From: Escherichia coli
GTDB lineage: Bacteria > Pseudomonadota > Gammaproteobacteria > Enterobacterales > Enterobacteriaceae
Strand: one strand, 5' to 3'
NCBI RefSeq assembly: GCF_030384885.1
Contig: NZ_CP128613.1
DNA length: 64,000 bases
Shown piece by piece: positions 46,301 to 49,300 of this stretch (position 1 is its first letter; every line of letters begins with the position of its first letter). Position numbers: made by a program.

Positions 46301-49300
46301 GCCTGTCAGCGCCAGCGAGGATCTCGGCGCAGGTACGCATGTTGAGGTGATTGCGATAGAAGGGATAACGCTGATTATCCGTGCGGTCATCGCCTGATGC
46401 GACGCTGGCGCGTCTTATCATGCCTACAAAATATGCCCGAATCGTAGGCCAGATAAGGCGCTTGCGCCGCATCCGGCATATAGCCGAGTAGAGGCAAAAT
46501 TACTCTTCCCGGCCTTTACCCATACTTTTTTGGTCTTCATCCGGATAATGTTTTTTTAGATATTCCAGGACGTTTTTATTGACCTTGTGTTGCGTATACA
46601 CCCACCCTTTCCAGTAATCAGGCTGGTCCAGGTAAACTTCTGGCGGAATGGTGAAATCAGAAAGCGTTAACCATTCGGCTAATAGATCGGGGTTTCGTTT
46701 CTGGATTAACTGCAACAGCATAATCAGTGACATAGCTGAGGCAGGAGCCGTACTATCGCCACTTAAATATTTCCACACTGTTGACCGGTTCGAACGAAAA
46801 AGGATCGGTAGCAATGCCCGGTCCAGATTCATTTCATTAAAAATCTTCTCAAATTCATTCATTTAAATTTTCCTGCCTGGCGTAAACCTCTTAAAAATTG
46901 AGATTTATCAAAGAAACGCATTTTAGCACACATCAGGAACTGCTTCACGTTTAGTCCAGAAACAGAATTTATTTCGCTTATCAAAACAAGTCTTTACTCT
47001 TTTTTACATTAAAAGAGCACGAAATGTTTTCCTTTTTAATTTATAAAAGAAACATTTTTTGTTTCTTATTTGTGGTGTTTACGCTTACACCAGACAAAAA
47101 TGTGCTTTACATCACACAAATGGCGGCGTAGATTTCGATTAAATTGCAACGTAGTTTATTTCTTAAAACAATATTATTTGTTTCTTATAGAAACATTAAT
47201 GCGACTTATTTTGAACAAGAGAAAATGAATGAAAACTGTAAACGTAGCTTTACTGGCACTCATAATTTCAGCAACATCCAGCCCTGTTGTTTTAGCTGGT
47301 GATACCATTGAAGCGGCGGCAACAGAGCTTTCAGCCATTAACTCTGGCATGTCGCAATCGGAGATTGAGCAGAAGATTACCCGCTTTTTAGAACGCACCG
47401 ACAACAGCCCCGCTGCATATACCTATTTGACTGAACATCACTACATCCCTTCTGAAACACCTGATACCACTCAGACTCCCCCTGTCCAGACAGATCCTGA
47501 CGCAGGACAAAAAACCGTTGCCGCTACAGGTGATGTACAGACAACCGCCCGTTATCAGAGCATGATCAACGCCCGACAGTCTGCGGTAACTGATGCCCAG
47601 CAAACGCAAATTACAGAGCAACAGGCGCAGATCGTAGCCACACAAAAAACGCTCGCCGCGACTGGAGATACGCAAAATACTGCGCATTATCAGGAGATGA
47701 TTAATGCCAGACTGGCGGCTCAAAATGAGGCTAATCAGCGCACTACCACGGAACAAGGGCAGAAAATGAATGCACTGACAACCGATGTGGCAGCACAACA
47801 GCAAAAAGAAAGGGCTCAATACGATAAACAAATGCAAAGTCTGGCGCAGAAGTCTGTCCAGGCACATGAGCAAATTGAAAGTCTGAGACAAGATTCCGCA
47901 CAAACGCAGCAACAGTTAACCAACACCCAAAAACGGGTCGCAGATAACAGCCAACAAATTAACACGCTCAATAACCATTTCGATTCTCTGAAAAACGAAG
48001 TTGAGGACAATCGTAAAGAAGCCAATGCGGGAACTGCATCTGCCATCGCTATCGCTTCACAACCACAGGTGAAAACCGGTGACTTTATGATGGTGTCTGC
48101 AGGAGCGGGAACGTTCAACGGTGAATCTGCGGTGTCTGTCGGAACATCATTTAATGCTGGAATTCATACAGTAATTAAAGCGGGAGTCTCTGCGGATACA
48201 CAATCTGATTTCGGCGCGGGTGTCGGCGTGGGGTATTCGTTCTAATTTTAATAGCAATTTCTTATTCGCAATTTTCCGTACATTATTTAAGGTTAACAAT
48301 GATGAATAGCTCCATTAAATCGTTTTCCCTGCTGGCGGTTATATTACTGGCTGGCTGTAGTTCACCCACTTCCCGCATCGCAGATTGCCAAGCGCAGGGA
48401 GTCAGTCATGACACCTGTTATCTCGCAGAACAACAGCGTCAGGCGGCTATTTTAAGTGCATCAGAAGCACAGGCATTTAAAAATGCAGAAGCCGCACAAC
48501 ATGCCCAGGCCGCTAAAAAATCTATTTATAAAGGATTTGGCGTCACCTTCAGAATGAGCAGTAAGAACTTTGCTTATCTCAATGATTCATTATGTGCCAT
48601 AGATGAAGATAATGCCGATGCCACGGTTTATCAGTCGGGTCTGTATAACGTCATTGTTTATCATCACACAGGAAAAGTAGCCTTAATGAAAGAAGGCCAG
48701 TTTGTGGGTTATTTAAAATGAAACTCACGCTTATACATATTATGATTATTGGCGCTTTTATCTTTGCATTCTTGCAAGTGGTATTATTAGCCTCCCTGGT
48801 TCACGCTGTGAATGTTAACAACGAAATCCAGGAAGGCTTATTTCAGTCGGGGCGCATTATGGTAGAAAGTTTGCAGCATATTCTGTCTGTGCAACCGGGG
48901 ATTAACGGGTAAGAGCACCGCTTCCATTTATAGAGCAATAGTCACCCGCGTAATTTTCTGGCACAGTTCAGGGAACTGAAATTTTGGCTAAGGAGTAGCC
49001 ATGCTTTTTCCCTGTCGAAAACCTGAAGTACGTCTGCTGAAAAATACCGCTGCGGGCGTCATTTTTTCGGTGAAGTCAGGTAAAGGATTTCTGCGTCAAT
49101 GTGTGATTTACGATCCGCACCCTTATGGGCTTATCCGTTCGCTCTGCTGGCAGGATGTCCCGTTAATACGTTTCTGGTCCGAGGCTGGCTGCCCCACCTG
49201 TGCGGAATTTGTCTACAGCGGTTTTGCGGATGATGAACAGGGAGCCGCCCGGTTTTTGTCTGCTCTCGAAAACTGGAATCGCCCGTGGTCTGGCATGACG

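Follow-up and report, generated by a model that had tools for sequence, protein, structure and literature searches.

Two small genes in a 64,000-nucleotide stretch of Escherichia coli DNA (genome of E. coli 2013C-4282, contig NZ_CP128613.1 of assembly GCF_030384885.1; this whole stretch is the window referred to below) encode a 140-aa lipoprotein and a 64-aa membrane protein. They lie behind a gene for a trimeric autotransporter adhesin (TAA) in the islet between ybbJ and cueR that is known as O-island 29 (OI-29) in enterohaemorrhagic E. coli (EHEC) O157:H7 EDL933. Both are real genes, part of a conserved cassette that includes a short, headless TAA, and their linkage to TAA genes is tight. 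The lipoprotein is related neither to SadB nor to TpgA, the known TAA helper proteins. Tentatively, we suggest that it acts as an outer-membrane-anchored envelope partner of the conserved anchor end of the TAA, which would make it an analogue, not a homologue, of SadB and TpgA.

The first-pass annotation of the window had described a 140-aa lipoprotein (lipobox LLAG-C) encoded 53 bp after a YadA-like gene, and a 64-aa, one-helix open reading frame (ORF) that overlaps its stop codon as ATGA; every one of these details was confirmed in the ORF list and the sequence. The PGAP annotation gives both as coding sequences (CDS) for hypothetical proteins, while the small ORF has no z-number in the O157:H7 annotation. 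The DNA of the lipoprotein CDS and small ORF of EDL933 is ~91.6% identical to that of the window. When codons of the window were compared with those of O157:H7, UM146 and E. whittamii, the ratio of nonsynonymous to synonymous substitution rates (dN/dS) was 0.03-0.07 for the lipoprotein (at dS 0.28-0.41), 0.10-0.12 for the small ORF (at dS 0.31-0.44) and 0.09-0.28 for the TAA gene, so that constraint within the cassette is strongest on the lipoprotein. The values for the lipoprotein and the small ORF indicate strong purifying selection, more than is expected of chance ORFs.

Within E. coli, the lipoprotein gene and the small ORF occur in 1416 of 5426 complete genomes and the TAA gene in 1414, so about a quarter of them carry the cassette, including O157:H7 and the adherent-invasive E. 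coli (AIEC) strain UM146; a published OI-29 survey also places the island in neonatal meningitis (NMEC) and uropathogenic (UPEC) strains. In most E. coli the arrangement is a four-gene cassette, with cueR directly 3' of the small ORF (e.g., O157, UM146). The TAA occurs as alleles of 338, 415 and 422 aa that differ in the passenger half, and at least 80% of the window allele is covered in only 1027 of the 1414 genomes. By comparison, conservation is seen across E. coli in the anchor (3') half of the TAA gene, in the lipoprotein and small ORF, and in the 53-bp spacing. Since the passenger half varies and the rest is constant, a partner of the anchor end fits better than a partner of the passenger.

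The linkage extends well beyond E. coli. ORFs were called in 50 fetched loci and searched with a home-built hidden Markov model (HMM) of the anchor that spans two anchor subtypes; every YadA-type anchor detected in these loci was encoded on the same strand as a family member and directly upstream of it. The TAA-linked members represent ~14 Enterobacterales lineages and non-orthologous TAAs of both anchor subtypes: E. coli, E. whittamii, Pseudocitrobacter sp., P. faecalis (two tandem TAA genes), Enterobacteriaceae UBA5654, Phytobacter massiliensis, Rahnella rivi, Yersinia aleksiciae, Pantoea conspicua (TAA gene 2 kb upstream), Enterobacter asburiae (two loci), E. chuandaensis, Lelliottia nimipressuralis, and loci L047-49 and L050. 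At least six chromosomal contexts are involved, including ybbJ-cueR, fetA or cnoX to qmcA, the wrbA region, and thiM beside sucrose-utilisation genes. Two variant arrangements are especially telling for the link to TAAs. At L050 (965-1542), a 79-aa N-terminal-module lipoprotein and a 110-aa C-terminal-domain protein with its own signal are encoded by separate adjacent genes behind the TAA gene. At L047-L049 (4001-4518), a protein that consists of the C-terminal domain only, with an ordinary signal peptide, takes the lipoprotein's place in the cassette, flanked by the TAA gene and by a homologous transmembrane ORF of 60 aa.

Co-conservation with the YadA-like gene, which had been proposed as a check on the first-pass annotation, is thus positive both in the E. 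coli counts and in the recurrent adjacency, and a functional link of the lipoprotein to the TAA is a reasonable inference. It might be argued that there is no functional relationship at all, and that a mosaic islet which happens to hold a TAA gene simply carries the lipoprotein gene and the small ORF along. The islet is indeed mosaic (in comparisons of the window with O157 or UM146, dS is 0.28-0.34 for the lipoprotein and small ORF, versus 0.11-0.14 for the TAA gene), it carries a 407-aa gene in only a subset of strains, and many family members are orphans. However, family members are found time and again next to non-orthologous TAA genes of both anchor subtypes, in at least six chromosomal settings and ~14 lineages, always on the same strand and immediately downstream, and by our own estimate the chance that a random gene has a TAA gene as neighbour is well under 1% (one to a few TAA genes per ~4500-gene genome). 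We therefore regard a mere passenger status as very unlikely.

Several observations weigh against a partner role. About half of the members that contain the C-terminal domain are orphans with no adjacent TAA gene; these come from Pluralibacter, K. grimontii, Raoultella, Erwinia, Serratia silvae, P. diazotrophicus, E. soli, Leclercia, K. aerogenes, and plasmids of Citrobacter and Chimaeribacter. None of the 63-69-aa lipoproteins that consist of the N-terminal module only (Buttiauxella, Pseudomonas, Aeromonas and others) is linked to a TAA. Deletion of OI-29 leaves adherence to HeLa and Caco-2 cells unchanged, and deletion of z0638, the lipoprotein gene, has no motility phenotype, as is also the case for z0640 (PMC5826968). 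Finally, the two might be independent envelope proteins, linked because they are regulated together. The earlier suggestion of dedicated partners accordingly survives in part: the link to the TAA holds up through co-conservation, but the lipoprotein is not an obligate TAA factor, because about half of the members lack an adjacent TAA. A neighbor-joining tree of the C-terminal domain, built from short sequences and without support values, mixes TAA-linked with orphan members, which suggests an old association in which the TAA gene was repeatedly lost or, alternatively, repeatedly gained.

The lipoprotein itself begins with MMNSSIKSFSLLAVILLAG-C20 (...LLAVILLAG-C20), which matches the canonical lipobox [LVI][ASTVI][GAS]-C; the signal peptide comprises residues 1-19. 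Cys20, the site of lipid attachment, is invariant in 17 of 17 aligned homologues. Residue +2 is Ser in the window lipoprotein, Ser or Thr in 16 of the 17 aligned members (Gln in L010), and Val at some further loci; it is never Asp, so the Lol-avoidance signal is absent, and sorting by Lol to the outer membrane is predicted. Two further cysteines, Cys30 and Cys40, are conserved in at least 90% of the members of the family alignment and probably form a disulfide. The other conserved blocks are a CYLAEQNRQ helix, a Q-H/Y-A-Q-A-A-K-K motif that precedes the C-terminal domain, and a C-terminal YQSGLY.VI.Y..GKVALM..GQFVGY. In the AlphaFold2 model, the N-terminal module spans residues 20 to about 72 and forms a helical hairpin (residues 23-32 and 37-70) with a predicted local distance difference test score (pLDDT) of 60-70, and residues 75 to 139 or 140 form an eight-strand beta domain with pLDDT >90. 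As modelled, then, the protein would consist of a lipidated helical module, probably clamped by the disulfide, and a beta domain of ~65 residues.

Judged by its sequence, this lipoprotein founds a two-module family that has no name or Pfam model and is almost confined to Enterobacterales. The family was searched by word index, by exhaustive profile search and by a scan of 100,044 species genomes, and it comprises 143 clusters at 50% identity among 1.84 billion proteins. The named sources are mostly Enterobacterales, with some members of the N-terminal-module-only type in Pseudomonas, Aeromonas and Skermanella. The lipoprotein has no Pfam family at E<=0.1 and no match in PADLOC; in NCBIfam it has sub-threshold matches to TraV and Lpp/OprI only, and no known signalling domain. 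A literature search on the locus tags that the lipoprotein has in Sakai and UTI89 gave no result.

The N-terminal module also occurs by itself. Free-standing lipoproteins with the lipobox, the Cys-X9-Cys pair and the CYLAEQNRQ helix are 63-69 aa long (96 aa in Skermanella) and are found in Buttiauxella, Atlantibacter, Silvania, Pseudomonas, Aeromonas and Skermanella (L021, L023, L025-L029, L031-L033, L035, L038, L039). No TAA gene adjoins any of them, and they appear to be an unannotated family of small lipoproteins. In Enterobacter soli, Lelliottia and Leclercia (L022, L030, L037) the module is joined to a different, beta-rich C-terminal domain of ~80 aa, and the Lelliottia copy of this alternative fusion also lies downstream of a TAA gene.

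The ATG of the small ORF lies within the 4-nt ATGA overlap, through which its translation is probably coupled to that of the lipoprotein gene. Homologues with the identical overlap are found in E. whittamii, at two different Pseudocitrobacter loci, and at the enterobacterial loci L047-49, and the homologues share the transmembrane helix and a C-terminal N..E.Q...FQS......E..Q..LS motif. The single hydrophobic helix covers about residues 5-29 (KD19 2.7 from residue 10). Positive charges at the N-terminus predict an N-in, C-out topology, in which the N-terminus would be cytoplasmic and a C-terminal tail of ~35 aa, after one transmembrane helix, would extend into the periplasm. A word-indexed search found the small protein only in Escherichia and Shigella, and the small ORFs of Rahnella and Serratia are unrelated to that of E. 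coli; the homologous small membrane protein is confined to the Escherichia/Pseudocitrobacter type of cassette.

SadB is the precedent for a lipoprotein that helps a TAA; it occurs in Salmonella and E. coli, where it is co-encoded with SadA/UpaG/EhaG (PMC3953254). The resemblance is one of organization: each is a small lipoprotein of enterobacteria whose gene adjoins a TAA gene across a short gap, probably as part of the same operon; each joins a helical N-terminal region to an all-beta C-terminal domain; and each has orphan counterparts without a TAA (YajI for SadB, and many members of the present family). The details differ. SadB has Asp at +2 and resides in the inner membrane, while the z0638 protein has Ser and is predicted to reach the outer membrane. 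The SadB gene is upstream of its TAA gene, while z0638 is downstream. SadB combines a nine-heptad trimeric coiled coil with an Ig (immunoglobulin)/MATH-like sandwich of ~100 residues, while the z0638 protein has a ~34-residue helix with the Cys-X9-Cys clamp and the smaller eight-strand domain. The SadB client is a giant fibre, while the TAA here is short and headless. In searches of all PDB sequences (expected to include SadB and YajI, 2JWY) with phmmer and the family profile, no match to SadB or YajI was seen at E<=10; the lipoprotein lacks an Ig/MATH-like beta-sandwich of the SadB/YajI type, and near the N-terminus a monomer model shows a single helix of residues 37-70 at pLDDT 60-70. Homology to SadB/YajI was rejected on the basis of sequence, fold, sorting signal and gene order, and the parallel to SadB drawn in the first-pass annotation stands as an analogy alone.

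The second precedent is TpgA of Acinetobacter, the periplasmic partner of the TAA AtaA (cited in bioRxiv 10.64898/2026.01.22.700529). It is likewise encoded beside a TAA gene, and this envelope protein has been proposed to bind its TAA at the membrane-anchor end, the mode of action suggested here for the lipoprotein. TpgA has BamE-like and OmpA-like domains. In contrast, the z0638 protein is lipidated and has neither a BamE-like nor an OmpA/peptidoglycan-binding domain in Pfam, which was also empty for 36 family members at E<=1, and kinship with TpgA was rejected. The names TraV and Lpp/OprI were rejected as well, as they derive from sub-threshold matches driven by the signal peptide and the Ala/Gln-rich helix: the TraV model (TIGR02747) scores 20 bits against a cutoff of 44.75, with the match limited to the signal peptide and N-terminal region, and the Lpp/OprI alanine-zipper model scores 15.8 bits against a cutoff of 43. 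One JGI record bears the TraV name, probably on an equally weak basis.

A phage origin, for example as a spanin-like pair, was rejected since tblastn gave no match in 50,697 phage records and the only PHROG match of the lipoprotein has E=0.007. A role in anti-phage defence is not supported, given the lack of a PADLOC match. Plasmid carriage is marginal, and consists of chromosomal-type regions on large plasmids and two mislabelled chromosomes.

Alternatively, the lipoprotein might be an independent protective or binding protein of the periplasm, such as an inhibitor of host enzymes in the manner of the MliC/PliC pair of lipoprotein and soluble forms, which would be co-expressed with the TAA only because both serve in host interaction. 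MliC, PliC and ACP are lysozyme inhibitors with an eight-strand beta-barrel, and this makes them a weak rival at the level of fold only; there is no similarity to the z0638 family at the profile level. The hhalign probability of homology is 0.3% (verified E. coli MliC sequence, three-sequence alignment), the MliC motifs are absent, and MliC/PliC homology was rejected. We consider an independent protective function of this kind doubtful.

Another alternative is that the lipoprotein, together with the small inner-membrane protein, senses or relays envelope signals to the regulator encoded by z0640, in the manner of outer-membrane lipoprotein sensors such as RcsF or NlpE, with the TAA as a regulated output and not as a client. 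The z0640 ortholog is the helix-turn-helix (HTH) protein of the island, judged by its fold, and is a probable XRE/Cro-type regulator of the cassette. The lipoprotein and a z0640-like HTH gene are conserved together in Escherichia, Pseudocitrobacter, Rahnella, Yersinia and L047; Serratia silvae retains the HTH gene, the lipoprotein and a small ORF without a TAA gene; and no gene of the cassette is more constrained than the lipoprotein. However, the z0640 protein is small and soluble, with no membrane or receiver domain; z0640-like genes are absent from the ORF maps of the TAA-lipoprotein pairs of Enterobacter, Lelliottia and UBA5654; the Rahnella and Serratia small ORFs are not homologues of the E. 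coli one; and Pfam and NCBIfam show no known signalling domain. These points make a sensing module distinctly unlikely.

The proposed partnership with the anchor would work as follows. Lol sorting would place the lipoprotein at the inner leaflet of the outer membrane, where it would act on the conserved membrane-anchor end of the TAA. There it may stabilize or tether the 12-strand barrel, either during or after Bam-dependent insertion, and so would work like SadB or TpgA without kinship to either. In cassettes of the Escherichia/Pseudocitrobacter type, the periplasmic tail of the small inner-membrane protein may provide a second contact from the inner-membrane side. The OI-29 genes are reported to be transcribed (PMC5826968). 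The 53-bp spacer between the TAA and lipoprotein genes contains no stable hairpin (minimum free energy of -11 kcal/mol, z=+1.7 relative to shuffled sequences, i.e., weaker than the shuffles), and co-transcription of the two genes is therefore plausible, as far as the sequence goes. A terminator at this position was considered because of one site reported by a consensus scanner, and was rejected because the region folds worse than its shuffles.

Features of the OI-29 locus in the window (positions are those of the window)
Feature	Position	Strand	Basis or remark
z0640 ortholog, 120 aa	46500..46862	-	probable XRE/Cro-type helix-turn-helix regulator of the cassette
Divergent intergenic region, 366 bp, between regulator gene and TAA gene	46863..47228	.	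presumed promoter region, from position only
TAA gene, z0639 ortholog, 338 aa	47229..48245	+	Pfam YadA_anchor
Spacer, 53 bp	48246..48298	+	Shine-Dalgarno-like AAGG 8 nt before the lipoprotein ATG; no convincing terminator
Lipoprotein gene, z0638 ortholog, 140 aa	48299..48721	+	ORF and lipobox
Codon of Cys20, lipidation site	48356-48358		lipoprotein gene
Eight-strand C-terminal domain	48521-48718		lipoprotein gene, AlphaFold2 model
Small membrane protein gene, 64 aa	48718..48912	+	ORF, hydrophobic helix, PGAP CDS
407-aa ORF	49001..50224	+	ORF; strain-variable addition outside the conserved cassette
Adhesin and secretion genes past cueR	50629 to window end	-	HlyD-family adaptor, type I secretion ABC transporter, BapA/SiiE-related adhesin (pseudogene)

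The z-numbers were assigned by mapping published deletion primers (supplement of PMC5826968) with blastn-short on an O157:H7 genome and on the window, which identifies z0638 as the lipoprotein, z0639 as the YadA-like TAA and z0640 as the divergent 120-aa ORF. The OI-29 deletion interval obtained in this way is exactly 2,643 bp, in agreement with the published size (PMC5826968). In that paper, z0638 of EDL933, which is the same gene as that of the window, is described only as a hypothetical protein without effect on motility, and its lipoprotein nature, family, linkage to the TAA and overlapping small ORF are not discussed.

The z0639 product is, from its sequence, a short headless trimeric autotransporter with a Sec signal peptide (MKTVNVALLALIISATSSPVVLA, read from the sequence), a coiled-coil stalk and a YadA-type anchor. 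The anchor (PF03895, YadA_anchor) matches residues 279-338 with E=5.3e-11 and 42.9 bits against a cutoff of 22.7, and Pfam has no match to a YadA head or stalk. In PHROGs the protein falls in an adhesin family (E=4.7e-22), PGAP names it “YadA family autotransporter adhesin”, and its Sakai counterpart, ECs0548, is annotated as “Saa-like protein” (PMC2323221). The same gene appears in the literature under the name “GmrA”, described as an activator of transcription that binds to the fliA promoter (PMC5826968). The primers used there to delete gmrA lie exactly on either side of the TAA ORF, so it was the TAA gene that was deleted and expressed in that study. Pfam and NCBIfam show no DNA-binding domain in z0639; beyond the anchor there are only coiled-coil noise matches (e.g., to SMC-type models). 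An exported TAA, as the sequence predicts, is hard to reconcile with the cytoplasmic DNA-binding role of GmrA, and the effect of OI-29 on motility calls for re-examination.

As for the remainder of the locus, a promoter consensus scan of the divergent intergenic region gave promoter-like sites that were no more numerous than in shuffled sequence. Of 5426 complete E. coli genomes, only 162 have the 407-aa ORF inserted ahead of cueR, after the small ORF, as estimated from genomes that cover at least 80% of query 46400-50700; it is missing from O157 and UM146, is also present in E. whittamii, and has no match in Pfam, NCBIfam, PADLOC or PHROGs. Past cueR are genes for an HlyD-family adaptor and a type I secretion ABC transporter, together with a giant frameshifted BapA/SiiE-related adhesin gene (siiEA pseudogene), so that a second adhesin system adjoins the OI-29 island. 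Loss of the island is illustrated by E. coli PKF4 (L052), in which an IS1 insertion or deletion took nearly the entire cassette and left a z0640 fragment and the last ~130 bp of the small ORF.

To our knowledge, SadB and TpgA are the only TAA helper proteins that have been described. A global survey of TAA neighbourhoods in 2026 found no further helpers, but only TAAs with a YadA head domain were examined (bioRxiv 10.64898/2026.01.22.700529), and the TAA of the OI-29 cassette has no YadA head domain in Pfam and so falls outside that criterion. Because the cassette is carried by strains such as O157:H7 and UM146, the hypothesis is directly testable in standard strains. At present, the finding is a well-supported genomic association; if the proposed role holds, it would represent a new, non-homologous variant of the TAA-helper system, and the lipoprotein family that recurs behind headless TAAs would be a third kind of TAA partner, one predicted to reside in the outer membrane.

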